NCBI GenBank assembly: GCA_043810285.1
Contig: JBDROH010000022.1
Location: 8,484-72,483, forward strand
Length of the DNA stretch: 64,000 bases
Direction of reading: 5' to 3'
DNA from: an archaeon
Lineage (GTDB): Archaea; Nanobdellota; Nanobdellia; Pacearchaeales; GW2011-AR1
A model generated the notes under the pieces. The model was not told the origin of the DNA. It saw only the letters and a program-made list of their open reading frames with translations, and did no database searches. A program made the translations under genes and the position numbers. The first letter of the stretch is position 1. Each line of letters opens with the position of its first letter. This document shows positions 7,332-47,918 of the stretch, in pieces.

Positions 7332-7909
7332 TCTGAAATTAAATTATAGTAATTCTCTTTCCCATAAAGTATAATGTTGTTTTTAATTATTTCGTTACCA
7401 AGATTATTTCCTTTCTTTTCTATCATTGAGGTAAATTCTTTTGAGGTAAATTCTTGTATTTCTAAGTTCAAAGATAATAGGCTTAGTTTCTCATTTAATA
7501 TTTTGGATTTAGATTCATTATCTAGAATTATGCAGATATCAATATCTGAATTCTTTGTGTTAGTTTTTTTAATATATGAACCAAATGCCAATACAGTTAG
7601 AAATGGGTAGTTTAATTCTTTGATATATTTTCTTATAACTTTTAAATTTAAATTTTTCGAGAAAAACTCTTCAGTTCTTTTTTCTTCTATTGAAAGAGTT
7701 TCTATATTGTTATTTTGATTAAATTCGATAAGATAGGAGTTTCCTTGCTTGCTTTTTAAATATGTTTTAGGATTTATTTTAGAGAGTGCTTGAGAAGTGT
7801 TTTTATAATCTGCTTTCAGTTTTTGAGAAATCTCCATGATAGAATGTGGAGATTCTTTGTTTTCGATTAAAAATTTCAATATCTTTTCTTTTAGGGTATA
7901 TTTTACCAT
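7313..7909 (-). CDS. Minimal nucleotidyltransferase (MNT), putative antitoxin partner of HEPN
   Basis: LAFGSYIKKTNTKNSDIDICIIL matches the GS-x(9-13)-D-x-D polymerase-beta-like nucleotidyltransferase signature. Confidence 0.7.
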   Translation of the reverse strand: MVKYTLKEKILKFLIENKESPHSIMEISQKLKADYKNTSQALSKINPKTYLKSKQGNSYLIEFNQNNNIETLSIEEKRTEEFFSKNLNLKVIRKYIKELNYPFLTVLAFGSYIKKTNTKNSDIDICIILDNESKSKILNEKLSLLSLNLEIQEFTSKEFTSMIEKKGNNLGNEIIKNNIILYGKENYYNLISEWMKKE

Positions 7910-8022
7910 GATATTATGGTAGTATATACCTTATTTAAATCTTGTGTTTTTGTCAAAACCCTCTCAACCGCCTCCTGCCCTTAATATGTCGACTGACTGT
8001 TGGGATTATCTCTTTTTCTTCT

Positions 8023-8177
8023 TAATTAAAAAATAAATCAATGCTCCACCAGCTAAAATCAAAAATATAGTCTAAAATGATGTCAGAATTTTCTTTGGAT
8101 ATATCTGGAATGCCGTTTTTTACAGATTCTTTCCATAAAAGATATCTTTCTTCATGCTGATATGGGTCAACTTTCAT
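8023..8177 (-). pseudogene. Remnant N-terminal fragment of a second tyrosine integrase
   Basis: MKVDPYQHEERYLLWKESVKNGIPDISKENSDIILDYIFDF is similar to the N-terminus of the intact integrase at 12644 (MEKRDPYKHKERYFRWLKENANGIGGISLRNSSLILAYLYDM). It ends after about 50 aa. Confidence 0.4.
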
Positions 8178-8471
8178 TAATTTTAGAAGGATTCGCAAAT
8201 AAAAAGGTCATTGTATAAATGTTGTATTTTAGACATAGTATCCTATTACTTAAGGAGATATAAAAATGTTTAGAAATCGCCCCAACCGCCGTGACTAGAT
8301 GAGTGTGTCTTTGGTAGGTGGATGGAATTTATTACCGTTTATTAAAATCAATTCCAATATCTTCTAAGATTTTAAGGGATTTTATAGTCTTGAAATAATA
8401 AACTTGTGCATCACTTCTCTTTTTAAAATATAAATAAAAACAAAATCCTGACAGGATCATCATAAACGATT

Positions 8472-9875: not shown

Positions 9876-9897
9876 TTTTTAGTAATCCAATACTTAA

Positions 9898-9975
9898 TGA
9901 AACTATCCAAAGGTTTTTCATATTCTAATCAAGGATGAAACTTATTTAAACTAAACGCCCCAACCACTGTTTACT
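9898..9975 (-). promoter_or_regulatory. Copy B of the duplicated promoter/leader module. It encodes a 17-aa truncated MKNLWIVSLSIGLLKNG upstream ORF that overlaps the start of the GT2 fusion gene
   Basis: About 70 of 75 nt identical to 4738-4812, including the TTTAAATA box. The TGA of the upstream ORF overlaps ATGGTTGAAG of the downstream gene. It ends in the att-core fragment CGCCCCAACC. Confidence 0.5.
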
Positions 9976-10037
9976 TCTAGTAGTGTTTGTTTACACCAAT
10001 TATATAAGATAAGTAAAATTCTTACTAATAATCAATT

Positions 10038-10361
10038 TTAATGTTGCATTGCAAGAATATTTTCTATTTCTTCTAGAGTATTATTTGTCGTTCTTAAAAG
10101 ATATTTAAATGCTTTAATATATTTTTCTTTCCCAGAAGTTTTAATAGCAACTTTCCTTTCTTCTTCATTATCAAAAGCAGAATTAATATATTCTTCATCT
10201 TTTAATACAATACCAAAATAAATTGGGTTCATTCCAAAAAATGTTCTCCATCTATTGTTTAACATGCATACATCACCAGGCTTACTACCTCTCTTAAATT
10301 TACTAAAATTCTTAATCTCTCTTTGTAGCGCCTCTTTGATAAACTTGTCCTGATTTTTCAT
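10038..10361 (-). CDS. Hypothetical protein, 107 aa, co-oriented immediately downstream of the NYN gene
   Basis: Clean ORF with no recognisable motif. Lies 60 bp downstream of the NYN gene on the same strand. Confidence 0.4.
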   Translation of the reverse strand: MKNQDKFIKEALQREIKNFSKFKRGSKPGDVCMLNNRWRTFFGMNPIYFGIVLKDEEYINSAFDNEEERKVAIKTSGKEKYIKAFKYLLRTTNNTLEEIENILAMQH

Positions 10362-10421
10362 ATTGATAATTATATTTAGTAAAGGATGTCTGAGTTTTTA
10401 TAGTTTTAGAATAATTTGAGA

Positions 10422-10958
10422 TTAGGATAATTTAATTTCTTCAATAAATTTTTCGTCTATTTTTATTGTTTTATAAGCTACTTTCTTTAGATGATAGGAT
10501 ATTGTTTTGCTGTTTCCTATTGCTACGTAGTTTATTTTTTTCGAAAATCTTTCTTGTGCTGCTTTAACTGCTCCTGAAAAATCTCCATCATTTGATATAA
10601 GAAATGCTTCGTCAAATTCGTTTGCTTGTGCGTCTAAAACTAAATCTAGTGCTAGGTTGACATCTGTCGCTTTTTCAACAAAGTATTCTTCTCCATCCTT
10701 TTTCCGTTTTTCTAATCTTCCAAAGATTATTTTTAGATTTTTGATTTCTCTAAATTTATCAAAAAAACTTTGTTGTTTTGCGTACATTTTAGAATTTTGA
10801 GTTTGGTCTACAGGTGCAATGTAATAATTTATTTTTACTAAATCATTTTTATTAGTAAGTTTTTTACAGAATTCTCCCATATCTATTTTACAATTAAATC
10901 TTTTCTTTATCGAAAAATAGAAATTGCTTCCATCAATGTAGACAATAGATTTTTTCAT
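10422..10958 (-). CDS. NYN-domain (PIN-like) predicted RNase
   Basis: N-terminal VYIDGSNFYF and later LISNDGDFSGAV are the two acidic-residue motifs typical of NYN/LabA-like nucleases. Confidence 0.6.
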   Translation of the reverse strand: MKKSIVYIDGSNFYFSIKKRFNCKIDMGEFCKKLTNKNDLVKINYYIAPVDQTQNSKMYAKQQSFFDKFREIKNLKIIFGRLEKRKKDGEEYFVEKATDVNLALDLVLDAQANEFDEAFLISNDGDFSGAVKAAQERFSKKINYVAIGNSKTISYHLKKVAYKTIKIDEKFIEEIKLS

Positions 10959-11119
10959 ATAATTAAAAAAATCATGGGGTCCGTGAAGATCCCATGGAGT
11001 TTATTGGAGTTAGATATAGTTTAATGTTTAAAAATGTTATGGTTGTGTATTTTTGTGTATTTTCTCGTTGGTAAATCTAAAAATTATGCGTTTTGTCGAC
11101 GTTGTTTTTATTTTTTACG

Positions 11120-13913: not shown

Positions 13914-13985
13914 CGCCCCAACCGGGGATTGAACCCGGATCTCGACCGCGACAGGGTCGTGTACTAACCACTATACTATTGAGGC
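13914..13985 (-). tRNA. tRNA-Asp (GTC)
   Basis: Cloverleaf read by hand. Acceptor GCCTCAA/TTGGGGC, D arm GTAT-AGTGGTTA-GTAC, anticodon stem CGACC/GGTCG with loop CTGTCGC (anticodon GTC), T arm CCGGG-TTCAATC-CCCGG. 72 nt. Confidence 0.85.
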
Positions 13986-14034: not shown

Positions 14035-14988
14035 GTTGTGCAAGCAAGTGACATATGTCACCCCCTAAAACAATAGCTCAAAATCATTATAAATTTCATC
14101 TGGCGTTTTATTATCCAAGCTCATATGTGGTCTAAAATGATTATAGTTCATTCTCCAGAGCTCAACATCTTCATTGCAAAACTTAAACTCTCTTTTGAAA
14201 GTTTGAAACAATCTCTCAACTTTTCCTTGCGTTGTTGGGCTATGAACTGTTCCTCTAATGTGTTCTATTCCCCTCTTTCTACATCTTCTGTCAAATCTTG
14301 AATGTCTGCTTTTCAAACCATAAGCTGAACCATTATCAGTTAGAATTTGTTTTGGCTTGCCATAAATTTTAATTAACTTATCGATTAAATTTATCACAAT
14401 ATCCGTCGTAACAACGTTAGTTACAGCAAAAGCTAAACTTTTTCTTGAGCAATCATCGACGACAGAAACTACCCACTTATCTTTAATTTTTTGTTGGCTA
14501 TGATCAATCTGCCAAAGAGAATTAGGACGTTTTCTTTGAAAACGAATATATTTTATTCTTTTCTTTTTTCTTTTAGTTGGTTCAGTTAGTTTGTGTTTGT
14601 TTAGAATTTTATTAATAGATGTATGGCTTAAGTTTACAAAGTTTTCAATTTTTTCAGCCCCAAAACCAGTTTTCTCTCTTATAGAAATAATCTTATTTTC
14701 TATCTCTTTAGTTATTTTTCTATGAATCATTTTAGGACGTCTGGACTTATCATTCAAATCCCAATTATCATTTGTATCTAATTCGTGTACCCATCTTTTC
14801 AAAGTTCGATTAGTTATTTCGAATTTATGTTTTACAAAAAGTATTTTTCTACATTGGTTATATGAATGTCCCTCCATTTTTAGTTTAAAAAATATCTTTC
14901 TGATTTCTTCTTTTTTCATAAAAAGAATCAAAAAACACTGCGGAACTAATTTTCGGTGCTAGTGACATATGTCACTGGATTGCACACT
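14035..14988. mobile_element. Insertion sequence of about 950 bp with 18-19 bp imperfect terminal inverted repeats and a palindromic core AGTGACATATGTCAC at both ends
   Basis: Left TGTGCAAGCAAGTGACATATGTCAC (14035-14061) and right AGTGACATATGTCACTGGATTGCACA (14962-14988) flank a single transposase ORF. Confidence 0.75.
14065..14931 (-). CDS. DDE transposase with integrase core (rve) domain and N-terminal HTH, IS481/IS3-like
   Basis: WQIDHSQQKIKDKWVVSVVDDCSRKSLAFAVT....ILTDNGSAYG shows the D..D..E core pattern. An N-terminal helix-turn-helix region is present. Confidence 0.8.
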   Translation of the reverse strand: MILFMKKEEIRKIFFKLKMEGHSYNQCRKILFVKHKFEITNRTLKRWVHELDTNDNWDLNDKSRRPKMIHRKITKEIENKIISIREKTGFGAEKIENFVNLSHTSINKILNKHKLTEPTKRKKKRIKYIRFQRKRPNSLWQIDHSQQKIKDKWVVSVVDDCSRKSLAFAVTNVVTTDIVINLIDKLIKIYGKPKQILTDNGSAYGLKSRHSRFDRRCRKRGIEHIRGTVHSPTTQGKVERLFQTFKREFKFCNEDVELWRMNYNHFRPHMSLDNKTPDEIYNDFELLF

Positions 14989-19883: not shown

Positions 19884-19964
19884 GCCCATATCGCATAATG
19901 GTATTGCACCGGTCTAGAAAACCGGGTCCGAAAGGGCATCCCCGTTCGATTCGGGGTATGGGCG
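19884..19964 (+). tRNA. tRNA-Ser-like class II tRNA with an apparent anticodon AGA (A34). Its 5' half is identical to tRNA-Ser(GGA) at 18858
   Basis: Acceptor GCCCATA/TATGGGC. Anticodon stem CCGGT/ACCGG with loop CTAGAAA. A 14-nt variable arm. T arm CCCCG-TTCGATT-CGGGG. A 3'-end fragment is repeated at 20053-20069. Confidence 0.6.
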
Positions 19965-25301: not shown

Positions 25302-26213
25302 TTAATACAAAGAACTTATTCCTGCAATGTCTCCTGATTCAAGAATTCTCTTTTTAGTTTCACCATAACTTGCATAGCCATACATTGTTTGTTCTGAGCA
25401 TCCACTTGTATACAAATCTCCCATGCCTACTGCATGTCCAAGTTCATGTGTTACTATATTTTCAAAATCCATTTTGTTAGTACAATCCGTTGTACAATCT
25501 TCAGACCAATCAAAATCAACATCATCAAAAATCATATCCCATTCCACTAGCACTCTCTTATTAGGTCGTCCTCCGAAAATACCCCATATAATTGTAATTC
25601 CAATTGCTCCTTGTGAATCAATATTTGCAAACATTACTTCATTTTTACCATTTAAATCTCCAATAGTCTCTCTATTAACTGAACTAGAGGTATCTTCCTC
25701 TCCAAGGATATTAGCTCCGCCTGAAGCATCTTCCCATTTATTAATATCAAATGCTAAATTACTTCTTATAGATGTGTTACTCAATCCTCTTATATTCTCA
25801 GTATCAACTAAGTATGGTTCAACACTTTTCCATTTTGCTCCGCTTGCTAAAAATGTATAACAAGAACTTGTATCTGGTTCTGGGTCAGGTTCTGGGTCAG
25901 GTTCTGGGTCAGGAACTTCTCCACAATCTTGTGGGCAACCTCCATCAGCTTCAAACACTAGGTGACACTTTCCATCTCCACAAACAGCTTTTGCAACCTT
26001 TTTCTTATCTTCAATCATAAAAGCATAACCTTCCACAACTTTTCCTTTATCAAATGCTTTCCCCAAATAGAAAACTCCTGGAGCAATCTTTACTGCATTG
26101 TCTGGAAGTGTGAATTCCTTATCTTGTTTTTGAGACTCTTTCCCAGCAACAACCATCCCAACTATCATTAACATAAATCCTAGAATAAAACCAACTGCTA
26201 TTATTTTTTTCAT
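25302..26213 (-). CDS. Secreted zinc metallopeptidase (HExxHxxGxxD, metzincin/snapalysin-like) with a (PEPD)n linker
   Basis: Signal peptide MKKIIAVGFILGFMLMIVGMVVA. Zinc-binding motif HELGHAVGMGD near the C-terminus. PDPEPDPEPDPEPD is encoded by a tandem 12-bp repeat. Confidence 0.65.
   Translation of the reverse strand: MKKIIAVGFILGFMLMIVGMVVAGKESQKQDKEFTLPDNAVKIAPGVFYLGKAFDKGKVVEGYAFMIEDKKKVAKAVCGDGKCHLVFEADGGCPQDCGEVPDPEPDPEPDPEPDTSSCYTFLASGAKWKSVEPYLVDTENIRGLSNTSIRSNLAFDINKWEDASGGANILGEEDTSSSVNRETIGDLNGKNEVMFANIDSQGAIGITIIWGIFGGRPNKRVLVEWDMIFDDVDFDWSEDCTTDCTNKMDFENIVTHELGHAVGMGDLYTSGCSEQTMYGYASYGETKKRILESGDIAGISSLY
25876..25912. repeat. Tandem 12-bp repeat (GGTTCTGGGTCA x3) encoding the PEPD linker of the metallopeptidase
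   Basis: Direct tandem repeat visible in the sequence, in frame within the CDS. Confidence 0.8.
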
Positions 26214-26370
26214 ATTTTTTCACCTATTGAGATATTAGGGCATAGAAGTATAAAAATGTTGTGTTATTAAAAAAATAATTTTGTTTTAGTAGCTATTGAA
26301 ATGATATTTACTATATCTATACTACAGAAGATATCATCAATAAATTTGAAACCTCGAATACAAACTGTAT

Positions 26371-27201
26371 TTATTTAAAATATAAACTCGCCCCTAAAAC
26401 TCCTGGATGTTTCAGCTTGCTCCATAAGATTGGAGTCTTTTTCGGAAACCGAACATATCTATCTAAATGTTTTCTTATCATTCTCAAAAACTTATCGCCA
26501 CACTCACTAACCCCTCCGGCTAAAATAACTACCTCCGGGTCAAAACAATGAATAAGCGACGCAATTCCCTGCCCATAATATTTTGTAAACTCTTCCAATA
26601 TTTTATCTGCTTTCACATTTTTCATTTTCATTAATTCATTAAAAAGTTTTGATTCTCCAAATAAATTAGTAGTTATACTCATTAATCTCTTCGACGCAGC
26701 CAAACTCTCAAAATCCTTACCACCATCTAAAATAATATGTCCAAGTTCTCCCCCATACCCTTCCCCTCTGTAAGGTTTGCCCTCGATAACCACACCACCA
26801 CCTATTCCCGTTCCAAGAGTTAAAATAATAAAATTCTTTTTTCTACAACCCAGTTTTAATTCAGCAAAAGCAACGCAATCAGCATCATTTTTAATAACAA
26901 CTGGAACCTTAAATTTGTCTTGCAAATCTTTCTTTAAATTATAATTTTTTATAGGCAAGTTTGGAGTAACCTTTATCACACCATCTTTTAACAATCCAGG
27001 AACCGCAACAGCTATACCTTTCACCTCGTCAGACATATAACTTCCCACAAGTTCAAAAATTTTTTCCTTAATCTCCACGAAAGTTTTAGGTGTTCTTTCC
27101 TTCAAATACTTCAATATTTTCCTATTTTTAATAAGAGCAACTCGAACATTCGTCCCACCCAAATCAATCGCTATAATCTTATCACCTCTAGAAACTTTCA
27201 T
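26371..27201 (-). CDS. ROK-family sugar kinase (putative glucokinase). The start is taken at the internal Met
   Basis: IAIDLGGTNVRVALI (ATP-binding N-terminus), LGTGIGGGVV, and the GELGHI ROK signature. Confidence 0.7.
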   Translation of the reverse strand: MKVSRGDKIIAIDLGGTNVRVALIKNRKILKYLKERTPKTFVEIKEKIFELVGSYMSDEVKGIAVAVPGLLKDGVIKVTPNLPIKNYNLKKDLQDKFKVPVVIKNDADCVAFAELKLGCRKKNFIILTLGTGIGGGVVIEGKPYRGEGYGGELGHIILDGGKDFESLAASKRLMSITTNLFGESKLFNELMKMKNVKADKILEEFTKYYGQGIASLIHCFDPEVVILAGGVSECGDKFLRMIRKHLDRYVRFPKKTPILWSKLKHPGVLGASLYFK

Positions 27202-27249
27202 AAAAACAAAAGACTTCCAATGTTTAAAAATCTGTTCATATATCAACCC

Positions 27250-28917
27250 TCAAAACCCATCTCTCTTCTGATACTTAGTATGCAACAATTTCTCTGCTTT
27301 CTTACTCAACGGTTTCCCCAAATACTTCTTATAAATTTCTTTAACAATCGGATTCTCATGAGACCTCCTAAACTTCTTTCTCGAATCCTGTTTATACAAC
27401 GCCTTACTCCTTAATCCTAAAACTTTCTCATCAAAATAAATCGGTTGCCCTCCCCCACCAACACATCCTCCAGGACAAGCCATCATCTCAATAAAATGAT
27501 ACTTATCTTTATCTTTCAACAACCTCCGAATATTCGCCCCACCATTTGCACAAGCATATTTGATAGTTTTATCCCCCAACTTTACCGACCCTGTTTTTAT
27601 CCCCTTAGAATCCCGAAGATTATCAAACTCAACTTTCCTAAGTTCTTTCCCCGCCACAATCTCATAACTCGTCCTCAACGCCGCTTCCATAACTCCTCCA
27701 GCAGTTCCAAAAATATCTCCAGCCCCACTCGCAATTCCAAGAATAGGATCAAATTCCTGATCTTCGAGTTTAGCAAAATCAATATTTTTTTGTTTAATCA
27801 ACCTACCCAACTCTCTCGTCGTAAGAACATAATCCACTTCAGTATTCAACTCAGGACGCGTAGACTCAAACTTCTTCGCAACACAAGGCATAATACTCAC
27901 GACGACAATATCCTTCGGATTTATCTTTGCCTTCTCCGCATAATACGTTTTAATAAGTATACCTAACATTTCATGAGGACTCTTACACGTCGACATATTC
28001 GGAATAAGCTCGGGATAAAAATGCTCCATCATCAAAATCCAACTCGGACAACACGTAGTAATCATCGGGAACAATCCTCCCCCCTTAATCCTCTTCAACA
28101 ATTCTGCAGACTCTTCCATAATAGTCATATCAGCCCCCAAATCCACGTCGAACACCATATCAAAACCACATTGCTTTAATGCTGTAACCATTTTCCCAGT
28201 AACCAAAGTCCCATATTTCATACCAAAAAGTTCCCCTAACGTTGCTCTTATCGACGGTGCTGTCTGCGCAACAACATGCTTCTTAGGATTATCCAATGCC
28301 TCAATAACTTCTTTCAAATGCGACCGCTCAGAAATGGCCCCCACAGGACAATTAATCAAACACTGTCCACATTTTATACAAGCAATATCAGACAAATGTT
28401 TTTCATTATACGGGGTCACATGCTCATTATGTGCCCGACTCGCAAAATCCACTGCAAAAATTTCCTGAATTTTTCCACAGACCTGAACACACCGTCCACA
28501 ATTAACACATTTATTATTATCTCTAACAAGTGCCGCCCCAAGTTCGGGAACATAATTTTTAATCGATTTGAATCTCTCATTATCCAAACCAACCTGCTCA
28601 TAAATTTCTCTCGCCTCAAAATCATTCGACAGTGCACCAATATTTACACCAGGATTCATCAACTCCATATTTCTCCGTCGAGCTTTCAAAACTTTTTTAG
28701 AAGAAGTCATAATTTTAGAATACTCTTTCGCCCTTGTAGAACAAGCAGTCACCAATTTCCCGTCAAGGTCAACCAAACATAATCGACATCTTGCCTCAGG
28801 AAATAAACTTTTGTGATAACATAATGTAGGAATTTTAATATTCTGTTTCTGACATATTTCTAAAATTGTTTTCCCCTCATCGACTTCCAAGTTCTTCCCA
28901 TCAATTGTTATTTTCAT
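27250..28917 (-). CDS. hydA: [FeFe]-hydrogenase catalytic subunit HydA with N-terminal 2Fe-2S and 4Fe-4S ferredoxin domains
   Basis: H-cluster motifs L1 TTCCPSW, L2 MPCVAKKFE and L3 EMMACPGGCVGGGGQP. An N-terminal 2Fe-2S plant-type ferredoxin fold and CxxCxxCxxxCP motifs are present. Confidence 0.85.
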   Translation of the reverse strand: MKITIDGKNLEVDEGKTILEICQKQNIKIPTLCYHKSLFPEARCRLCLVDLDGKLVTACSTRAKEYSKIMTSSKKVLKARRRNMELMNPGVNIGALSNDFEAREIYEQVGLDNERFKSIKNYVPELGAALVRDNNKCVNCGRCVQVCGKIQEIFAVDFASRAHNEHVTPYNEKHLSDIACIKCGQCLINCPVGAISERSHLKEVIEALDNPKKHVVAQTAPSIRATLGELFGMKYGTLVTGKMVTALKQCGFDMVFDVDLGADMTIMEESAELLKRIKGGGLFPMITTCCPSWILMMEHFYPELIPNMSTCKSPHEMLGILIKTYYAEKAKINPKDIVVVSIMPCVAKKFESTRPELNTEVDYVLTTRELGRLIKQKNIDFAKLEDQEFDPILGIASGAGDIFGTAGGVMEAALRTSYEIVAGKELRKVEFDNLRDSKGIKTGSVKLGDKTIKYACANGGANIRRLLKDKDKYHFIEMMACPGGCVGGGGQPIYFDEKVLGLRSKALYKQDSRKKFRRSHENPIVKEIYKKYLGKPLSKKAEKLLHTKYQKRDGF

Positions 28918-30029
28918 TTTATATACTCCCGATAATCTTTTTTAAAATGTTTAAGACTTGTCAATATATGATTTCCACAAGACTGTCCTAATCCACACAA
29001 ACTAGTTTCCTGAATATGTTCTGCAAATTCTTTCAATAACTTTATATCACTCTCGTTGGCCTTTTTATTCTTTATTTTTTTCAACAAATTAACTAATCTT
29101 ATCGTTCCCTCTCTGCACGGAGTACATTTTCCGCAAGACTCGTAAGTATAAAATTTCGCAATACTCAAGCATATATCGACGATGTTATGTCTCTCACCAA
29201 TAAGAATAATACTAAACGCTCCGTGCTGACAATCACTTTTACATATAGTCTCTTGAGACACCGAGGAATTTTTATTAATCGGCATAATCCCTCCAAAACA
29301 ACCAAAAGACATTGCCTTAATTTTCTCCTTGGGTTTAACTGTCTCCAAAATCGTTGACATTTTCACTCCAAGTTCCCATTCATAAACTCCTGGATGATTA
29401 ACATCTCCCGAAATAGAAAACAGCCTATAATCCGGATTCCAATCTTCGTATACCAATGCTTGGGGAACACAAGTTAATGTCTCGACGTTATTCAATACAG
29501 TTGGTTTACCCCATAACCCTGAAATAGTAGGATAAGGAGGCTTGTACATTGAACTACCCCTATTCCCCATTATCGATTGAATAATTGCAGTCTCTTCCCC
29601 ACAAACATACGCACCAGCCCCCCTAACAATTTCAATAGAAACTTTCATCTTAGATTTCTTTAACATCTCTTTTATCTTTTCCTCAAGCTCTTCTCTCAAA
29701 TAATCATACTCTCCTCGAAGATAAATAAAACACCTCTTAACTTTCAAAACATAAGCTGCAATTAACAGTCCTTCAATCATTGTCTCAGGATTATTTTTTA
29801 AAATAAATTTATCCTTAAAAGTTCCTGGCTCACCTTCATCAGCGTTACATATAACATATCGTTCTTTTGCCTTTGTATCCATTGCCACCCCCCATTTTTT
29901 TGCAACAGAAAAATTTACACCTCCCCGACCGCCCAATTTCTTCTTCGATAAAATCTCAAGAACCTTCTTTCGCCCAATTTTTTTAGCCAATTTCAAACCG
30001 GCCAATTTCGTCTCTCTAAGTATCTGCAT
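28914..30029 (-). CDS. hydB: NADH-binding flavoprotein subunit (NuoF/HydB-like) of a multimeric hydrogenase
   Basis: GEPGTFKDK NADH/FMN-binding region and the C-terminal 4Fe-4S motif CGKCTPCREG...C. Overlaps hydA by 4 nt. Confidence 0.8.
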   Translation of the reverse strand: MQILRETKLAGLKLAKKIGRKKVLEILSKKKLGGRGGVNFSVAKKWGVAMDTKAKERYVICNADEGEPGTFKDKFILKNNPETMIEGLLIAAYVLKVKRCFIYLRGEYDYLREELEEKIKEMLKKSKMKVSIEIVRGAGAYVCGEETAIIQSIMGNRGSSMYKPPYPTISGLWGKPTVLNNVETLTCVPQALVYEDWNPDYRLFSISGDVNHPGVYEWELGVKMSTILETVKPKEKIKAMSFGCFGGIMPINKNSSVSQETICKSDCQHGAFSIILIGERHNIVDICLSIAKFYTYESCGKCTPCREGTIRLVNLLKKIKNKKANESDIKLLKEFAEHIQETSLCGLGQSCGNHILTSLKHFKKDYREYIK

Positions 30030-30444
30030 TTTTTCTTAATTCTCCCAAAATTTCCTTAACTCGTTGGATTGTTAATTTTGTATAAGGCACCCCATTAACC
30101 AACATCGCTGGAGCTTCATCACAACACCCGATACATGAAGTTTTATAAACAGAAAACAAATTATCTTTACTAGTTTCTCCAATTTCAATTTTCAATTCTT
30201 TTTCTAAAAAGTTTTCTATCTCTCTACTTCTGTTTAAAATACAACTTGGAGATCCACATAATTCTATTACATATTTTCCTTGTTTTTTGATTTTTAGCAT
30301 AGTATAAAATGTAGCAACCCCATAAAGCTTAGATATCGGAATATCGTATTCTATGCTAATTTCTTTTAAATTTTTTTCAGAAAGATAACCCTCTCTATCT
30401 TGTACTTCATGCAATATATTCAAAAGTATTTTATCTTCCATCAC
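30016..30444 (-). CDS. hydC: NuoE/HydC-like thioredoxin-fold 2Fe-2S subunit
   Basis: CGSPSC...C..CCDEAP four-Cys pattern of the NuoE family. 142 aa. Confidence 0.7.
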   Translation of the reverse strand: MMEDKILLNILHEVQDREGYLSEKNLKEISIEYDIPISKLYGVATFYTMLKIKKQGKYVIELCGSPSCILNRSREIENFLEKELKIEIGETSKDNLFSVYKTSCIGCCDEAPAMLVNGVPYTKLTIQRVKEILGELRKNADT

Positions 30445-31067
30445 ACAATCAACTCTTTTAACTCCTTCCGGGGATTTTTAGCATTACAAATCGCAGAACT
30501 AACTGCAATACCTGAAGCTCCAAGTTTCATTGCAATCTTAACATCCTCAGAAGAATGAATTCCTGCACCGACGAGAAAATTCATTTTCAAGCTCTTCTTT
30601 ATCTTCTCTATTAATTCCGGTTTAGACTTCGAAACAGAAATCTTACCACCAACAAGTTCTGGAGGTTCTATTACTAAATAATCAGGATTCAACTTTTCAA
30701 TTTTCAAAGCCTCCCCCAACGACGAAGCAAAAACCACAGTCTTCAAACCAACCTTATTACATCTCTTAATCGTCCTCTTTAAAATATCAAAATCCAACTT
30801 ATGTTCAGAATGATTTAAAAAACTTCCAATAGCTTTCTCACTTTTTACAGCCTCGGGAAGAACAAATCCTGTAGCTCGGCCTTTTTCCAAACAATCTACA
30901 TGCTGACTATAAACTTTTAATTTAGTCTTCTTAACAATCTCACAAATATCACTTGCCTGAACACCGACGATAATGTTCTTATCAACCTCCTCAATCTGCT
31001 TAGCTAAATTAACTGCTTCCTTTCCTTGCTTATATGTCTTAAAGTTTACAATAATAATCGGTTTCAT
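30441..31067 (-). CDS. tpiA: Triose-phosphate isomerase, archaeal short form. The start is taken at MKPIIIVNFKTY, and the ORF-track start overlaps the upstream gene
   Basis: NFKTY N-terminus, the NHSEHKL catalytic region, and about 208 aa as in archaeal TIMs. Confidence 0.8.
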   Translation of the reverse strand: MKPIIIVNFKTYKQGKEAVNLAKQIEEVDKNIIVGVQASDICEIVKKTKLKVYSQHVDCLEKGRATGFVLPEAVKSEKAIGSFLNHSEHKLDFDILKRTIKRCNKVGLKTVVFASSLGEALKIEKLNPDYLVIEPPELVGGKISVSKSKPELIEKIKKSLKMNFLVGAGIHSSEDVKIAMKLGASGIAVSSAICNAKNPRKELKELIV

Positions 31068-32257
31068 TTTAAACCATCCTTTCTTAACAAAATATATTCG
31101 GCATGACTCCATCCCAAGGGATTCGCCCAATAAACCATTTTTCTTCCTCTAAAATTTTTAACTGACTTTTCAGCTTTTTTCATTTCATTTATAATTCTCG
31201 AATTAAACTCAATTTCATGAGACTTCCAATCATCATATTCCTCTTTCGTCGCAATATGTTCCGGTAACAATCCATCTGAAAAAAAAGAAACTTCCCTTAA
31301 CCATTTAATACATTCGTTATATCCTCTCTTATTTTTAACCTTTTTATAAAATCTAGCAACCATTGCAGTGAGAGCACACCAACTTCCAGAACCTCCAGTA
31401 TACCAATGCCAATCATCACAAATCTCAAATTTTCTAAACCTTCTAAATCCTCCAATTTCACCATCCCAAATATGCTTTCTTAAATAAGCCAATGTATTCC
31501 TCAAAACTTTTTCATCATCATCAACATTAAAATAAAATGGAGCCAACTGAGAAATATCTGGGGAATCTGGAAACCTCTTATTTTTAATATAAATCTTAAG
31601 TTTCTTATTGAACAATCTCTTCTCAATATTCCCTTTAATTTTCTCCGCCTTTTTGTCCCACTCTTTGCTTTCTTTTTTATGATTCATTATTTCCGCAATC
31701 TTGGCCGCATCTTTTAATCCTCGATAACAAGCACAATTCACCCAGAGATCATATCCCTTCTCAAGTTTTTTGAATTCGTGAATACTAGAATTAGTTTTAA
31801 CTAACCCAAATCTAGAATAAGAAAATATAAGCCCAACGACTTGTTCAACTGTCGTCCACATATTCTCAAGAAAAGTCTCTTTCTTATTATGCAAATAAGT
31901 ATCATATATCCCGTGCAACAACAATCCCTCATTATCATTTTGAACTTTCCGTGTTACAGAAGGCAATCCTGAAGAGGTATACCTCTGAAAAACCTCTTTA
32001 TAATTTTCGACCTTAACTGCTTTTTTCATAAAATAATAAAATTTCTCCGAAGCATCAGCCATCCCTATACGATTCAATGCCTTACTAATAATAACGCTAT
32101 CCCTCGTATAAACATATGGATACGCCGCATCCTTGGGGGTCGCAAGTATACCTCCATTTTTTAACCGCAAAGACTTGACAACCTCTTCACTCTTTTTCAA
32201 CAAATCTATCTTACCTCTAGAAGTCTTAGAACTTAAAGTCATAATCATGTCCTGCAT
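31064..32257 (-). CDS. Glycoside hydrolase family 15 (glucoamylase/glucodextranase-like) catalytic domain
   Basis: ATPKDAAYPYVYTRDS, WTTVEQ, and GGFRRF...DDWHWYTGGSGSWCALTA of the (alpha/alpha)6 barrel of GH15. Confidence 0.65.
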   Translation of the reverse strand: MQDMIMTLSSKTSRGKIDLLKKSEEVVKSLRLKNGGILATPKDAAYPYVYTRDSVIISKALNRIGMADASEKFYYFMKKAVKVENYKEVFQRYTSSGLPSVTRKVQNDNEGLLLHGIYDTYLHNKKETFLENMWTTVEQVVGLIFSYSRFGLVKTNSSIHEFKKLEKGYDLWVNCACYRGLKDAAKIAEIMNHKKESKEWDKKAEKIKGNIEKRLFNKKLKIYIKNKRFPDSPDISQLAPFYFNVDDDEKVLRNTLAYLRKHIWDGEIGGFRRFRKFEICDDWHWYTGGSGSWCALTAMVARFYKKVKNKRGYNECIKWLREVSFFSDGLLPEHIATKEEYDDWKSHEIEFNSRIINEMKKAEKSVKNFRGRKMVYWANPLGWSHAEYILLRKDGLK

Positions 32258-32663
32258 TTTTACTATAGATTGTAAAAACTTCTAAATTACTTTTCCCAGT
32301 GTTAATAAGCCTATGTCCAGACTTCCCAGGGATAAAATAAATTTTACCCTTCTTCATATTTATTTCCTTAATTTTATTCTTTTCTTTAATCAAAAGTTTC
32401 CCTTTCCCGTTGATCAACATATAAATTTCCTCGACGGGATTTCTATGTCTATGCCCCTTAGTCATAAAATATTCTTTTCCAATCTTCCCAGATTCAATAA
32501 CTGTCAAACCAGTTTCAAAACTTTTAAAATCTTTAATATACACCACATAAATCAAAGGGTTCCCTTTAATTTCAGATTTATATTTATCCTTCATATCGGT
32601 ATACCTTCTTACCATTTTTTTATCGCACAACTTCTTTAAGTTTTTATAATCTACTTCAATCAT
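32226..32663 (-). CDS. Cupin-type glucose-6-phosphate isomerase (cPGI)-like protein
   Basis: Cupin motifs TKGHRHRNPVEEIY (TxGHxH....E) and GHRLINTG, resembling archaeal cupin PGIs. 145 aa is shorter than typical. Confidence 0.5.
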   Translation of the reverse strand: MIEVDYKNLKKLCDKKMVRRYTDMKDKYKSEIKGNPLIYVVYIKDFKSFETGLTVIESGKIGKEYFMTKGHRHRNPVEEIYMLINGKGKLLIKEKNKIKEINMKKGKIYFIPGKSGHRLINTGKSNLEVFTIYSKNAGHDYDFKF

Positions 32664-33411
32664 TTTTCCAAATCACCCCACTTATTTTTTTAGAAATCTT
32701 CAAAGGATTTTTGCTCTGCCAAACATTTCTCCCAATAGCAAACCCCGAACATCCAACCTTCATCGCTTCCTTTACTTCTTTAATCAAATCACTCTCATCT
32801 TTTTTTCTTCCACCAGCAATAACTACTCGAACCTTTCCCGCACTTTTAATCGCCCAAGCTAAATCCTCTTTTTTTCCAGTAGATTGAATCTTAATAATAT
32901 CTGCGCCAATCTCTAACCCCACCCTTGCAGCATAAGCCATCAAATCTTTTTTCTTTTTCCCAGAAACCCCTTTTCCTCGAGGATAAATCCAACAAATCAC
33001 TGGCAGACTATTCTTGTGTGCCTCTCTTTGTATCCCTTCAAACTCAGACAACATTTCCTCCTCATGTTTACTCCCAATATAAATTGTATATCCTACTGCA
33101 ACCGCACCAAGACTAATCGCTTCCTTTATCGTACAAAGTTGTTTTGATATAGGATCTCCTCCAACCAAATTTGTTTTCCCATTAAGTTTTATTATCAAAG
33201 GAACCTTACTTAATTTTATTTCCTGATTATACTTTTCCGCAATCCCTTTCTGAAAAATAATTCCGGTATACTTTCCCTCTTTTGCAATCTTTATAATATA
33301 TTCAGGATCTACATTCTTATCATTAAAATCCATCGGCCCATGTTCCAACCCCTGATCATAAGCTAAAAACAACGCCCTTCCCTTTCTCATAATTTTATTT
33401 AATTTAATCAT
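32656..33411 (-). CDS. Class I fructose-bisphosphate aldolase of the DhnA/FbaB family. An ADH synthase paralog is not excluded
   Basis: ALFLAYDQGLEHGP N-terminal motif and a TIM-barrel aldolase of about 250 aa. Lies in a glycolytic gene context. Confidence 0.6.
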   Translation of the reverse strand: MIKLNKIMRKGRALFLAYDQGLEHGPMDFNDKNVDPEYIIKIAKEGKYTGIIFQKGIAEKYNQEIKLSKVPLIIKLNGKTNLVGGDPISKQLCTIKEAISLGAVAVGYTIYIGSKHEEEMLSEFEGIQREAHKNSLPVICWIYPRGKGVSGKKKKDLMAYAARVGLEIGADIIKIQSTGKKEDLAWAIKSAGKVRVVIAGGRKKDESDLIKEVKEAMKVGCSGFAIGRNVWQSKNPLKISKKISGVIWKND

Positions 33412-34364
33412 TTTAACTTCATCCTTAATAATTTATTTTTCGCCCCAAAGTATCTAATTACAGATTCACTCTCCTTCAAACCTAATTTCAAACTTTCAGG
33501 AATCGTCTTTCCCACAATCATCCCGGCAACAAATCCTGAAGCAAACGCATCTCCAGCCCCAGTTCTTTCAACAACCTTAACTTTATTCGGCTTCAAAAAA
33601 TAATCTTCATTCCCGTCGCTACAACTTATCAAATTATTCTTATCAGTTATAACAATAATCTTCGGACCCAACTCCCTCAAACAAACCATCAAATTTCCCT
33701 TCTTCTTATACTTCTTGCAAAGCATCTCAGCTTCTTCTTTATTTAAAATTAAGACATCACATAATTTTAACATCGACGTCAAATCTTCTCTCTTAATCAA
33801 ATATTCTCCAGGATTAAATGCCAACTTCGTCCCTTCTTTTTTTAGTTTCATTACAAGTTTTTCTTGCGTCCGAAGACTCTTTCCCAGAACCGAAGAAAAA
33901 TAAAGCCAATCAGTTTTAAATTTCGGAATCTCGCTTAACCTAACATCATTCCCCGGACCCTTAAATGTTAAAATAGTTCTACTCCGATCTTTACTATCAA
34001 GAATTATAGAATACCCGGTTTTGCCTTTTATCTTCGAGCCAAGAAATTTAATTTTTTCATTTTTCAACATATTCAAAATATCTTGTCCATTATTGTCGTC
34101 GCCAATCTTACAAATACATCCAGTTCCTAATCCCAAACGTGCAAAAGCAACCGCAGTATTCGTTGCCCCTCCGCCAATATCAAACTTCAGATTATTGACC
34201 AGAATTTTAGAACCTGCAGGATAGTTAAACGAATTACTTCTTTCATTAAATTCAGTATCTACAAAAGCATCGATAACAGCACTTCCAAAACTAACCACCT
34301 CAAATTTCATCATCTTTTTTAGCTTATTCTCCGAAGAGAAAATTACTTCACTCCTTTTTCTCAT
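33408..34364 (-). CDS. PfkB/ribokinase-family carbohydrate kinase (candidate ATP-PFK or nucleoside kinase)
   Basis: GGGATNTAVAFARLG and the catalytic TGAGDAFASGF motif. Confidence 0.75.
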   Translation of the reverse strand: MRKRSEVIFSSENKLKKMMKFEVVSFGSAVIDAFVDTEFNERSNSFNYPAGSKILVNNLKFDIGGGATNTAVAFARLGLGTGCICKIGDDNNGQDILNMLKNEKIKFLGSKIKGKTGYSIILDSKDRSRTILTFKGPGNDVRLSEIPKFKTDWLYFSSVLGKSLRTQEKLVMKLKKEGTKLAFNPGEYLIKREDLTSMLKLCDVLILNKEEAEMLCKKYKKKGNLMVCLRELGPKIIVITDKNNLISCSDGNEDYFLKPNKVKVVERTGAGDAFASGFVAGMIVGKTIPESLKLGLKESESVIRYFGAKNKLLRMKLK

Positions 34365-34560
34365 TATTAGTAGATTTAATTAATTAAAAGCTTTTGTATT
34401 TCTAATTTAATGTCAAGTCATACCTCTATTCAGCAAACTTCTTACCGAATACCAGTCCAAACATAATTCGGACAACCTCCAATTCTATTGTTCCCAACTT
34501 TATCAACTCTCAACAAATCACAATAATCTCGAGAATCAATTTTCACCGACGAATCAGATT

Positions 34561-35121
34561 TTAGAACCGAACCGCGTCCCTACTCTGCTCACTCGACATT
34601 CCAATACTAATTCCTAAAGAAATCAAACCCTTCTCACCAATAATCTCTTTTCCAGTCTCGGCAAAACTCGCAATTCTAATTGGACACCGAGCCTTCCGAC
34701 AAATCTTAATATTTTGAATCAACCTAGACAAACGCAAAGCTTTCGCATTACTATCTAATCTCGACACCTCGCCAAAATCAATAACTATAGTTACACATCG
34801 CTTAGTCGCTTCCCCTGCGATAACATGATTCAATCCAGAATCTCTCTGCTTTAAACTATCATTTTTCAAACCCCGTTCAGGAGAAACCAGATAGTCTACT
34901 TTCAATGTTTCAATAGCCCGACGATTAAATACACTGTCCCCTCCAACGACAGCAATAACTTTCTCTTTTCCTTTTAAAGATTCAATAATCTTCCGAGCTT
35001 CATTCTCCGAAGCCTCAATCAAATAGCCATCGCAATCATCTTTCTCTAAAACTTCTGACTTTGATTTTATCTTCTTCAAAAAAATTGAATCTTTTGTTTT
35101 GAATAAAGTTATGTCTTTCAT
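34561..35121 (-). CDS. RNase P protein component 3 (Rpp30/Rnp3)-like
   Basis: GLNHVIAGEATKR and LISLGISIGMSSEQSRDAV resemble the conserved segments of archaeal Rpp30 as recalled from memory. Not verified by search. Confidence 0.45.
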   Translation of the reverse strand: MKDITLFKTKDSIFLKKIKSKSEVLEKDDCDGYLIEASENEARKIIESLKGKEKVIAVVGGDSVFNRRAIETLKVDYLVSPERGLKNDSLKQRDSGLNHVIAGEATKRCVTIVIDFGEVSRLDSNAKALRLSRLIQNIKICRKARCPIRIASFAETGKEIIGEKGLISLGISIGMSSEQSRDAVRF

Positions 35122-37577: not shown

Positions 37578-37648
37578 TGGGCACAGGAGGAATCAAACCC
37601 CCGCCCCCCGGGCTGGAGCCGAGTAGACTATCATTATCCGATGCACCC
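37578..37648 (-). tRNA. Candidate tRNA-Trp (CCA) with a non-canonical T-loop
   Basis: An isolated roughly 100-nt GC-rich island in an AT-rich intergenic region. Acceptor GGGTGCA/TGTGCCC with two G-U pairs. Anticodon stem CTCGG/CCGGG with loop CTCCAGC. T arm GGGGG-TTTGATT-CCTCC with U at position 56. 71 nt. Confidence 0.45.
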
Positions 37649-39383: not shown

Positions 39384-39767
39384 ATGAAAATATTACTAGA
39401 CACAAATTTCGTTCTGACCTGTGTAAAACAAAAAATAGATTTTTACAGTATTACAAATGACTTTTCTGAAGAATCAATAGAATGGATTGTCCCTCAAGAA
39501 GTGTTAGAGGAATTAAAAAATCTAAAAGATAAAAAAAACATTAAAGTTAAAGAGAAGAATGCGGCCAAATTAAGCTTAGAAATCTTAAAAACAATCAAAC
39601 CTCAAGTTATAAAACTCAGAGGGAGAAACCCTAATGTAGACATCAAAATAGTAAATTATCTCTTGGGAACTAAAATTGTTTTAGCAACACTAGATAAGGA
39701 TTTGAAAAAAAGAGTAGCCAATAAAATTCTAACGATTAGAAACAAAAAGAATTTAGAAATTATTTAA
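39384..39767 (+). CDS. PIN-domain protein, Fcf1/Utp24-like
   Basis: KILLDTNFVL N-terminal Asp, and LATLDKDLKKRV resembling the ATxDxxLRRR Fcf1 motif. Confidence 0.5.
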   Translation: MKILLDTNFVLTCVKQKIDFYSITNDFSEESIEWIVPQEVLEELKNLKDKKNIKVKEKNAAKLSLEILKTIKPQVIKLRGRNPNVDIKIVNYLLGTKIVLATLDKDLKKRVANKILTIRNKKNLEII

Positions 39768-47111: not shown

Positions 47112-47918
47112 ATGATTGTCAAGGAAGAATTTTTAAGCAGGCTGAGAAAAATATTTGATCTTAATTTATATGAAGTAAAAGTTTGGACAGCACTTCTATC
47201 TCGAGGAACTTCCACTGCAGGAGAGCTCTCTTCAATTTCTGATGTACCCCGTTCTAGAACATATGATATCCTCGAATCCCTTGAAAAGAAAGGATTTATT
47301 GTAATGAAACTTGGTAAACCAATCAAATTCGTTGCACTAAAACCTGAAGAAGTAATTGAACGAGTAAAAAAGAACCTCGTGGTTACTGCAAGAGAAAAAT
47401 CACAAAGATTAGAAAAACTAAAAAGTGAAGATATTCTTGAGGAACTAACAGGTATATTTTCTGAGGGTATTAAATATGTTGAATCAACAGACTTATCTGG
47501 AGCCTTAAAAGGAAGACAAAATATTTACAATCATCTTGATATGTTGATAAGAGAAGCACAAAAGACTATTATACTTGTAACAACTGCAGATGGTTTAAGC
47601 AGAAAGTTAGAAATTCTTTTACCAAGTTTAGAAAAAGCAAAAAAACGAGGAGTTACAATAAGAATCTCCGCACCGATAAATGCGGAAAATAAACAAGTTG
47701 CAAAAGATTTTTCAAAAGTTGCCGAAGTTAAGGATATGGGAGCTCTTCGAGCAAGATTTATGGTAATTGATGGTGAGCAATTAATGTTTATGCTTCTAAA
47801 TGATGAAGAGGTTCATCCAAATTATGATGTTGGAGTTTGGCTAAACACAGAATTCTTCGCTCAAGCCTTGGAACAATTATTTGAAATAGCTTGGAACAAT
47901 TTTAAAGCGATTAAATAA
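47112..47918 (+). CDS. TrmB-family transcriptional regulator
   Basis: N-terminal winged HTH LYEVKVWTALLSRGTSTAGELSSISDVPRSRTYDILESLEKKGFI, typical of TrmB. Confidence 0.7.
   Translation: MIVKEEFLSRLRKIFDLNLYEVKVWTALLSRGTSTAGELSSISDVPRSRTYDILESLEKKGFIVMKLGKPIKFVALKPEEVIERVKKNLVVTAREKSQRLEKLKSEDILEELTGIFSEGIKYVESTDLSGALKGRQNIYNHLDMLIREAQKTIILVTTADGLSRKLEILLPSLEKAKKRGVTIRISAPINAENKQVAKDFSKVAEVKDMGALRARFMVIDGEQLMFMLLNDEEVHPNYDVGVWLNTEFFAQALEQLFEIAWNNFKAIK

Follow-up and report, generated by a model that had tools for sequence, protein, structure and literature searches.

Does a gene array that sets enzymes of sugar breakdown beside a trimeric [FeFe]-hydrogenase allow an archaeon to discharge the NADH of glycolysis directly as H2, or does the hydrogenase call for reduced ferredoxin as well? 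This question is raised by nine genes on the minus strand of a 64-kb stretch of contig JBDROH010000022.1 (hereafter the window, to which all coordinates refer), whose host is a low-GC (33.5%) Pacearchaeota-like DPANN archaeon with a metagenome-assembled genome. We lean slightly towards the explanation that a single DPANN catabolic operon combines the preparatory half of the Embden-Meyerhof pathway with a co-transcribed hydrogenase that would pass electrons from NADH to H2 without ferredoxin.

The first-pass annotation of the window had described nine minus-strand genes in a fixed order, and the mechanical list of open reading frames (ORFs) agrees with this description. Nine consecutive minus-strand ORFs fill positions 26371-34364 exactly, running from a PfkB-family kinase through a class-I fructose-1,6-bisphosphate (FBP) aldolase, a cupin-type phosphoglucose isomerase (cPGI), a glycoside hydrolase family 15 (GH15)-like protein, triosephosphate isomerase (TIM), HydC, HydB and HydA to a ROK-family kinase. 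Pfam and NCBIfam profile scans, read against curated cutoffs where these are stated, bore out the family first proposed for every one of the nine ORFs (Table 1), and the family assignments carry high confidence.

With the most plausible starts, the genes overlap at successive junctions by 4, 8, 32, 4, 4, 14, and 4 nt, and the single gap in the array, of 48 nt, lies between HydA and ROK. A Shine-Dalgarno-like motif of the GGAG/GGTG type precedes each internal start. The starts of TIM (31067) and ROK (27201) were taken from gene calls, while that of PfkB was corrected: the mechanical ORF reaches 34364, but the ATG there is not conserved in relatives, whereas an ATGATG at 34313 is. Upstream of the array, a 196-nt spacer separates the RNase P p30 gene from PfkB, and in an alignment of the window with two related loci (L002 and L007) this spacer is poorly conserved except for a 23-nt block, GAAATACAAAAGCTTTTAATTAA, which reads as a purine-rich B recognition element (BRE) followed by a TATA box and, by archaeal consensus, would act as the promoter. 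At the other end, a T7 tract is followed by a TATA-like TTTTTATA element and a GGTGA motif, and then by the ATG of the next gene at 26213. In the interval 26000-34700, the coding strand has only two runs of at least seven T, namely this T7 tract and a T8 tract inside the GH15-like gene. Taken together, the overlapping junctions, the Shine-Dalgarno-like motifs, the conserved BRE/TATA-like block, and the T7 tract with a new TATA-like element beyond ROK sustain the earlier proposal of a single operon, and we have high confidence that the nine genes make up one catabolic operon, its co-transcription being predicted from these signals.

Table 1. Features of the nine-gene array and its flanks, listed from the upstream end (coordinates of the 64-kb window)
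Feature	Position	Strand	Evidence or remark
BRE/TATA-like promoter block GAAATACAAAAGCTTTTAATTAA	34380..34402	-	Only strongly conserved stretch in divergent upstream DNA
PfkB-family sugar kinase, 301 aa	33408..34313	-	PF00294, 133 bits; proposed ATP-dependent 6-phosphofructokinase
Archaeal class-IA FBP aldolase	32656..33411	-	DeoC/LacD class-I aldolase profile, 148 bits
Cupin-type phosphoglucose isomerase, 145 aa	32226..32663	-	PF06560, 64 bits (cutoff 20.7)
Single-domain GH15-like glycoside hydrolase, 397 aa	31064..32257	-	PF00723, 34.6 bits; TIGR01577, 98.8 bits
T8 tract in GH15-like gene	31279..31286	-	Coding strand; putative internal termination/attenuation signal
Archaeal-type triosephosphate isomerase, 208 aa	30441..31067	-	NF003302/PRK04302, 214 bits (cutoff 132)
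HydC, NuoE-like thioredoxin-fold [2Fe-2S] subunit	30016..30444	-	PF01257, 141 bits
HydB, minimal NuoF-like diaphorase, 371 aa, flavin mononucleotide (FMN) and one [4Fe-4S]	28914..30029	-	Complex1_51K and NADH_4Fe-4S only
HydA, group A [FeFe]-hydrogenase catalytic subunit, 555 aa	27250..28917	-	TIGR02512, 506 bits (cutoff 405.95)
HydA L1 motif TTCCPSW	28039-28059	-	Intact
HydA L2 motif MPCVAKKFE	27865-27891	-	Intact
HydA L3 motif MACPGGCVGGGGQP	27442-27483	-	Intact
ROK-family sugar kinase, proposed glucokinase	26371..27201	-	PF00480, 155 bits
T7 tract, candidate archaeal terminator	26269..26275	-	About 100 nt downstream of ROK stop; function predicted

On whether the hydrogenase needs ferredoxin, HydB is the telling subunit. 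The discriminators published for non-bifurcating enzymes are domain content, the residue pair 232/234, the GGPSG motif, and position 367 (Losey et al., PMC7311640): in Thermotoga maritima numbering, bifurcating enzymes carry Ala or Glu at 232, Met at 234, and GGPSG in the SLBB domain, and non-bifurcating enzymes carry Thr or Ser at 232, Lys, Ser, or Ala at 234, and Tyr in place of Phe at 367. Furthermore, the C-terminal domain of HydB is found in all characterised bifurcating [FeFe]-hydrogenases and is absent from non-bifurcating ones (Furlan et al., PMC9499530), and non-bifurcating homologues are devoid of clusters B2-B5 (Schut et al., PMC9304861). HydB of the window aligns only to residues 178-559 of the Thermoanaerobacter kivui protein and 181-556 of the T. 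maritima protein, stops five residues past the NuoF core, and gave no Fer4 match in Pfam. We aligned ten DPANN HydB sequences (370-392 aa) with five long Clostridia HydB sequences (596-656 aa) taken from loci returned by our genome search. All ten DPANN proteins are without the N-terminal [2Fe-2S] thioredoxin-like domain and without the C-terminal 2x[4Fe-4S] domain, where the Clostridia sequences continue with CxxCxxCxxxCP...CxxCxxCxxxC. At the NADH site, the DPANN proteins read GEPGTFKD (Thr70 and Lys72 in HydB of the window) and the Clostridia proteins GDPGAFMD; FGCFGG stands in the former where the latter have GGPSG; and GAGAY in the former faces GAGAF in the latter, a difference noted in the present alignment. 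HydB thus has neither of the two extra domains, nor the Ala/Met pair, nor the GGPSG that mark the bifurcating HydABC/Bfu enzymes, and it shows the features of the Syntrophomonas wolfei type, namely the absence of extra Fe-S domains and of GGPSG together with Thr232 and Lys234. In a HMMER search of the whole protein library, HydB retrieved only a few clusters (at 50% identity) of relatives of about 370 aa; all further matches were NuoF/HydB homologues of a generic kind, with an identity of about 40%.

The other two subunits complete the picture. HydC carries the four NuoE cysteines (63, 68, 104, and 107/108). HydA retains the N-terminal [2Fe-2S] site, both ferredoxin-like [4Fe-4S] sites, the H-cluster, and the small-subunit domain, and its best PDB matches are T. 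kivui HydA1 (8a6t_A, 550 bits), Acetobacterium woodii HydA1 (519 bits), and CpI (475 bits); against the narrower NCBIfam model NF040763 ("NADH-dependent, group A6"), it scored 724.6 bits, just below the cutoff of 765. The H-cluster motifs L1, L2, and L3, which had been called intact at first sight, proved to be so when set against the consensus forms TSCCPxW (L1), MPCxxKxxE (L2), and ExMACxxGCxxGGGQP (L3), and they are conserved with all ligating cysteines in 12 DPANN relatives. The HxxxCxxCxxxxxC motif, which provides the His-ligated [4Fe-4S] cluster, is absent from HydA, whereas the Clostridia sequences keep it. The three subunits amount to about 1070 residues, and from their motifs we predict that they hold a single FMN and, besides the H-cluster, two [2Fe-2S] and three accessory [4Fe-4S] clusters. 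These cofactors would form a linear chain from FMN through the [4Fe-4S] cluster of HydB, the [2Fe-2S] cluster, and the two [4Fe-4S] clusters of HydA to the H-cluster, with the [2Fe-2S] cluster of HydC lying off the path.

The main rival to an NADH-only enzyme, beside which the other three alternatives discussed below are lesser ones, is genuine group A3 confurcation, in which NADH and reduced ferredoxin would be oxidised together to H2. In HydDB-style classification, the HydC-HydB-HydA organisation defines group A3, and DPANN trimers have been labelled as bifurcating members of this group on the basis of gene organisation (PMC8421398, PMC11216029, and PMC11606122); in addition, the closest HydA homologues of solved structure are subunits of the bifurcating complexes of T. 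kivui and A. woodii. Confurcation is hard to reconcile with the missing domains and motifs of HydB and with the loss of the His-ligated cluster of HydA. No gene for ferredoxin or pyruvate:ferredoxin oxidoreductase lies nearby in the window, and a regular-expression search for the ferredoxin-type CxxCxxCxxxC motif over the six frames of the window returned only two sites, both in HydA. A further argument against confurcation comes from a marine Nanoarchaeota contig (L031, 558-7813), which bears two tandem HydC-HydB-HydA operons. In operon one, a 574-aa HydB of the bifurcating type has both extra domains and GAGAF, and HydA has the complete His-ligated motif; in operon two, HydB is of the short DPANN type, 372 aa long, and reads PGTFKD and GAGAY. 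That a long-HydB operon is kept beside a short-HydB operon speaks for two types that differ in function and are not redundant. Measured by the published features (PMC7311640, PMC9499530, and PMC9304861), the anatomy of HydABC is that of the non-bifurcating, NADH-dependent type, and "NADH-dependent", the label given in the first-pass annotation, is well supported as a better reading of the sequence than the bifurcating label of the literature. We regard confurcation as unlikely and a non-bifurcating, NADH-only mechanism as modestly probable; NADH specificity, reaction direction, and the lack of bifurcation are all predictions.

We then considered what the sugar enzymes could deliver to such a hydrogenase. 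The aldolase matched the FBP aldolase of Thermoproteus tenax (1ojx) with 248 bits (E 7e-73) and ADH synthase MJ0400 with 110 bits, and it keeps the equivalents of T. tenax Asp24, Tyr146, and the Schiff-base Lys177 in the segments AYDQG, IYPRG, and IIKIQ. It fell below both NCBIfam cutoffs, with 196 against 430 bits for NF040816 and 214 against 241 bits for the ADH-synthase subfamily model. With the difference in bit scores and the three active-site residues retained, an ADH synthase, the paralog that could have overturned the aldolase call, is unlikely. The cPGI call likewise held against an unrelated paralog, for all metal ligands are retained: the His-His-Glu-His site is intact, the motifs TKGHRH, E-IY, GHR, and GHDY are conserved, and the protein matches cPGI of Thermococcus litoralis and Pyrococcus furiosus (E 4e-20). 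It is shorter than the full-length enzymes of about 189 aa, since the alignment ends at residue 162 of 190 and about 27 C-terminal residues are missing; this short form is conserved among relatives. Among ROK glucokinases, a zinc-binding CxCGxxGC motif is typical. The ROK protein of the array has neither this motif nor a helix-turn-helix (HTH) domain, its segment after GELGH is shortened to ILDGGKDFESL, and it scored 115 bits against the curated glucokinase model TIGR00744 (cutoff 260); glucokinase is a reasonable candidate function for this sequence.

The PfkB-family protein was more difficult to place. Its family, as first annotated, is secure from PF00294 and from the kinase motifs GAGD (TGAGDAF) and NxxE (NKEE), but its specificity is not: all NCBIfam equivalog models lie far below cutoff, no close PDB relative was found, and its homologues bear generic names such as "carbohydrate kinase" or "ribokinase". 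The proposed role as 6-phosphofructokinase comes from filling the hole in the pathway and from gene neighbourhood. One may imagine a kinase whose substrate is fructose-1-phosphate, ribose, a nucleoside, or some keto-deoxy sugar, and with it a sugar or nucleoside salvage route other than the Embden-Meyerhof pathway. The names of the homologues would suit such a route, as would the best NCBIfam matches (ribokinase, IolC, and fructokinase, all far under cutoff), the nucleoside kinase MJ0406 among the weak PDB matches, and the frequent report that phosphofructokinase is missing in these lineages (PMC8421398). We nevertheless consider it quite unlikely, because PfkB adjoins FBP aldolase and TIM in two independent gene arrangements, because the conversion of fructose-6-phosphate to FBP is the sole gap once ROK, cPGI, FBP aldolase, and TIM are present, and because the aldolase resembles a proven FBP aldolase far more than it does ADH synthase.

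The GH15-like protein has no sequence match among solved structures: searches of the PDB gave nothing at E<0.01, and no NCBIfam equivalog model was reached. Its AlphaFold2 model (pLDDT 89.9) is an (alpha/alpha)6 barrel whose top fold matches in the PDB are the GH15 enzymes 5Z3A-E, 9JU0, and 1LF6, the best being 5Z3A with a TM score of about 0.7. The acid and base of GH15 enzymes are placed in the alpha5-alpha6 and alpha11-alpha12 loops (PMC12446779), and in the model the invariant Glu161 and Glu166 lie in the alpha5-alpha6 loop and Glu333 in the alpha11-alpha12 loop. Fold and loop glutamates are hence those of GH15 in the model, and catalytic roles for the three glutamates may be supposed. The protein has no hydrophobic N-terminus and is thus predicted to be cytoplasmic. 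Because GH15 comprises glucoamylases, glucodextranases, trehalases, and isomaltose glucohydrolase (PMC12446779), starch is not established as the substrate. The starch catabolism first ascribed to the array is not borne out by a single-domain, predicted cytoplasmic protein with no PDB match in sequence and an isomaltose glucohydrolase as nearest fold, and a cytoplasmic alpha-glucoside or oligosaccharide is more likely. Proteins of this family, of about 380 aa, are found in Pacearchaeota, Nanoarchaeota, and Patescibacteria. We also observed that DPANN members are about 60% identical to three proteins annotated as Patescibacteria, the candidate phyla radiation (CPR) (P0148, P0165, and P0167), which suggests exchange between ultra-small organisms or mis-binning. 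As had been proposed, the six sugar genes could jointly take an alpha-glucoside to two triose phosphates, and our confidence that upper glycolysis is their function is fairly high.

Is the association of these genes with the hydrogenase more than a feature of one contig? We compared neighbourhoods by tblastn with the nine operon proteins against 85 fetched loci (L-numbers). An identical nine-gene co-directional array occurs in L002/L018, L006, L007, and L008, where HydA is 85-88% identical; since it recurs in related genomes, the arrangement is not due to chance. A second arrangement, with HydA at 61-79% identity, consists of a divergent ROK gene upstream, HydCBA, and then convergent TIM-FBP aldolase-PfkB, and was found in L003/L021, L009, L010, L012, L014, L017, L032, and L041. 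In L003/L021 and L014, this block runs on into phosphoglycerate kinase (PGK) and a bacterial-type glyceraldehyde-3-phosphate dehydrogenase (GAPDH), and genes for glycogen phosphorylase, debranching enzyme, glycogen synthase, and GH57 lie nearby in L003/L021. A third arrangement is co-directional HydCBA-GAPDH-PGK in L034 and L039 and HydCBA-GAPDH in L038, and HydCBA stands alone in Micrarchaeota, Aenigmatarchaeota, and many Woesearchaeota loci. HydCBA is thus repeatedly linked with glycolytic genes, that of the NADH-producing step among them, and only in the near relatives of the window are they fused into one operon.

The same comparison showed which parts of the array are stable. PfkB adjoins the FBP aldolase and TIM genes in two different arrangements, while the genes upstream of PfkB differ between relatives. 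ROK is the variable end: L002 and L007 carry insertions between HydA and ROK, at 11714-12181 in L002 (a 155-aa UCP014422-family protein) and at 11665-12779 in L007, and L007 also has gaps between PfkB and FBP aldolase and between FBP aldolase and cPGI. From these insertions and gaps, the ends of the array are more plastic than the TIM-HydCBA core. In genomes of Pacearchaeota, Woesearchaeota, Nanoarchaeota, and Micrarchaeota, annotated relatives share 60-88% identity; for each protein of the operon, the nearest ones bear the label Pacearchaeota or Nanoarchaeota. The HydA protein itself is recorded on contig JAZDEA010000012.1 (84.7 kb) of the metagenome-derived assembly GCA_043809305.1. Recent horizontal transfer of the hyd genes finds no support in base composition, as the GC content of each gene (29-39%) bears no such sign beside the 33.5% of the window.

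In the route that we propose, the cytoplasmic GH15-like hydrolase would free glucose from an alpha-glucoside or oligosaccharide, the ROK kinase would convert it to glucose-6-phosphate, cPGI would yield fructose-6-phosphate and the PfkB kinase FBP, and class-IA aldolase with TIM would deliver two molecules of glyceraldehyde-3-phosphate. A GAPDH encoded elsewhere would then make NADH, which would reduce the FMN of HydB; from there, electrons would travel along the chain described above to the H-cluster, where H2 would be formed. Like that of S. wolfei Hyd1ABC, this route from NADH to H2 would use no ferredoxin and no bifurcation. Formation of H2 from NADH is endergonic under standard conditions and becomes feasible only at very low H2. 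The characterised bacterial non-bifurcating enzymes sustain only 2.2-40.2 Pa H2 (PMC7311640). Because the reaction is uphill and limited to such pressures, the module would depend on an H2-consuming partner, and a dependence of this kind fits the DPANN lifestyle.

The same energetics could be read in the opposite direction, with the enzyme working mainly as an H2-uptake hydrogenase, or as a reversible redox valve, and forming NADH from host or environmental H2. Production of H2 from NADH is endergonic unless H2 is very low, and the characterised non-bifurcating enzymes are reversible (PMC7311640), both of which would agree with this alternative. We judge it very unlikely, given that the predicted co-transcription with two ATP-consuming kinases and a hydrolase provides a catabolic, NADH-generating context, that other clades link the hydrogenase to GAPDH-PGK, and that no NADH-consuming reductive pathway is obvious in the window.

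The array had also been described as a self-contained fermentative module, and in this respect the description does not hold. We searched the window and a further 7.5 kb of the contig (about 71 of 84.7 kb) and found no GAPDH, PGK, phosphoglycerate mutase, enolase, or pyruvate kinase, no pyruvate:ferredoxin oxidoreductase, lactate dehydrogenase, or ferredoxin, and none of the maturases HydE, HydF, and HydG. Without these maturases, HydA might not be matured at all, in which case the complex would be an NADH-linked Fe-S redox protein or non-functional. Their absence from the searched part of the contig would agree with this, but we consider it most improbable: dozens of DPANN genomes show strict conservation of all ligands of the H-cluster and of the motifs around them, a pattern that implies selection for catalysis, and a full set of maturases is reported for only 5 of the 130 archaeal genomes with [FeFe]-hydrogenases, none of them that of a cultured H2-producing archaeon, so that an alternative maturation route is proposed (PMC11216029).

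A nearby gene for a TrmB-family sugar regulator had been pointed out. The gene is real (47112-47918), but a regulatory link finds no support: it lies 13 kb away, and the Thermococcales glycolytic motif (TGM) TACTN3AGTA (Thermococcales consensus, at most one mismatch) is neither enriched in the window (33 matches against 27 expected) nor present upstream of the operon. We thus discarded TrmB control.

Several points weigh against the reading of the array as a ferredoxin-free glycolytic operon. On the side of the hydrogenase, published surveys place archaeal trimers in the bifurcating group A3 (PMC8421398, PMC11216029, and PMC11606122), the best solved relatives of HydA (8a6t and 7q4v) belong to bifurcating complexes, and its nearest bacterial relatives, at 44-47% identity, adjoin long HydB genes. 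The published discriminators derive from a handful of characterised enzymes, and one of them, T. maritima HydB 367 (Phe/Tyr), has no counterpart, owing to an 8-residue deletion after a conserved Trp in all DPANN HydB sequences. The proteins of this clade are known from their sequences, and H-cluster maturation finds no explanation in the searched part of the contig. On the side of glycolysis, the substrates of PfkB, ROK, and the GH15-like protein are surmised, as neither models, PDB matches, nor names assign their specificities, the source of NADH is assumed, since GAPDH is absent from the searched part of the contig, and so is the fate of the triose phosphates. The T8 tract inside the GH15-like gene could, moreover, split the transcript.

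The broader proposition that emerges from these results is that the widespread DPANN trimeric [FeFe]-hydrogenase is not a bifurcating group A3 enzyme but a pared-down NADH:H+ oxidoreductase that needs no ferredoxin and amounts to a complex-I N-module joined to an H-cluster, the His-ligated cluster having been lost. Such an enzyme would be wired to glycolysis by gene order in several clades, would be matured without HydEFG, and would make H2 the direct NADH sink of sugar fermentation. We put this forward tentatively, as an idea that falls a little short of being probable. If it is true, these archaea could ferment sugars only next to a host or partner that consumes H2, and their dependence would have a mechanistic basis in the transfer of H2 between species. 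Current reconstructions of DPANN metabolism assume, through the group A3 label, that ferredoxin and NADH are used jointly; an NADH-only enzyme would change the redox balance and energetics of DPANN fermenters, would require very low H2 and hence a syntrophic or host partner, and would alter how environmental hydrogenase surveys are read. The linkage to upper glycolysis, and elsewhere to GAPDH-PGK, provides a concrete, testable hypothesis, and the compact HydABC would be useful for biochemical and structural work on the difference between bifurcating and non-bifurcating enzymes.

As for what is new, the enzyme family is already published, as are its occurrence in DPANN archaea and a general tie to the fermentation of carbohydrates; the association of the trimeric hydrogenase with carbohydrate-degrading DPANN archaea, in particular, has been noted (PMC11216029). 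The systematic absence of all bifurcation modules from the DPANN trimer, including the His-ligated cluster of HydA, appears to be undescribed, as do the insertion of hyd genes in an upper-glycolysis operon and the parallel HydCBA-GAPDH-PGK linkage. The available portions of PMC8421398 and PMC11216029 give no account of the missing HydB domains or HydA cluster, of the insertion in a glycolytic operon, or of the HydCBA-GAPDH-PGK linkage, and no paper in the literature collection searched combines "non-bifurcating", "hydrogenase", and "DPANN".

Elsewhere in the window, we noted genes for archaeal EF-1alpha, EF-2, S7, a KH-domain NusA, RNase P p30, an archaeal CCA-adding enzyme, OapC, and archease. 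At 54449-61200 (minus strand), upstream of NusA-S12-S7-EF2-EF1alpha, lie two large ORFs (1104 and 1144 aa), presumably RNA polymerase subunits B and A. In archaea, RpoA normally comes as two parts, A' and A''; for the presumed RpoA here, the ORF list contains only one ORF of at least 100 aa. At 1415-2431 (minus strand), a 338-aa protein has a strong GGDEF diguanylate-cyclase domain (128.5 bits). To our knowledge, c-di-GMP signalling is generally regarded as bacterial, and a GGDEF gene on an archaeal contig could reflect horizontal transfer or a binning or assembly issue. A cluster of the toxin-antitoxin/defence type occupies 5707-11000, with Fic at 5707-6663, a HEPN and nucleotidyltransferase pair at 6810-7909, and NYN at 10422-10958; a PIN-domain gene lies farther off at 39384-39767. 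An rve-family integrase/transposase gene (14065-14931) adjoins tRNA-Asp (13914-13985), which may mark the insertion site of a mobile element. Two further tRNA calls differ between programs: one at 37578-37648 (minus strand) was found by Rfam and not by ARAGORN, and a tRNA-Ser(aga) at 19884-19964 (plus strand) by ARAGORN and not by Rfam.

Finally, we compared the array with known systems. The closest parallels to HydABC are Hyd1ABC of S. wolfei and HydAB of Syntrophus aciditrophicus, which share with it a catalytic subunit, one subunit that resembles NuoF, and another that resembles NuoE, a beta subunit that has no additional Fe-S domains, residues of the complex-I type where NADH binds, and the absence of GGPSG, and which, like it, are predicted to require very low H2. 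The present enzyme differs from them in that it is archaeal, has an even shorter HydB (371 aa), has lost the His-ligated site of HydA, is encoded in a glycolytic operon, and is described from its sequence. The group A3 (Bfu family) HydABC enzymes of T. maritima, T. kivui, and A. woodii have the same three-gene organisation, identical H-cluster motifs, and a HydA similar at 519-550 bits, whereas the present HydABC is without both extra domains of HydB and the His-ligated cluster of HydA and differs in residues of the NADH/FMN site. The N-module of complex I, made up of NuoE, NuoF, and the N-terminal part of NuoG, is also similar, in that the top score of HydB was to Aquifex NuoF (258 bits), GEPGTFKD and GAGAY are shared, and the cofactor set is the same; in HydABC, however, the electron acceptor is an H-cluster domain instead of a quinone module, and the complex is soluble. 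Among the sugar enzymes, the GH15-like protein resembles the isomaltose glucohydrolase of Kribbella flavida (5Z3A), its best fold match, which also consists of one (alpha/alpha)6-barrel domain, about 370 aa long, and has no N-terminal beta-sandwich, although the two are only 17-18% identical and the PDB search by sequence did not retrieve it. The DPANN trimeric "group A3" hydrogenases of Huang et al. (2021, PMC8421398) and Greening et al. (2024, PMC11216029) belong to the same protein family as the present HydABC; these two papers assign bifurcation or confurcation to the DPANN trimers, and it is in this assignment that our reading, a minimal enzyme that would take its electrons from NADH, differs from theirs.

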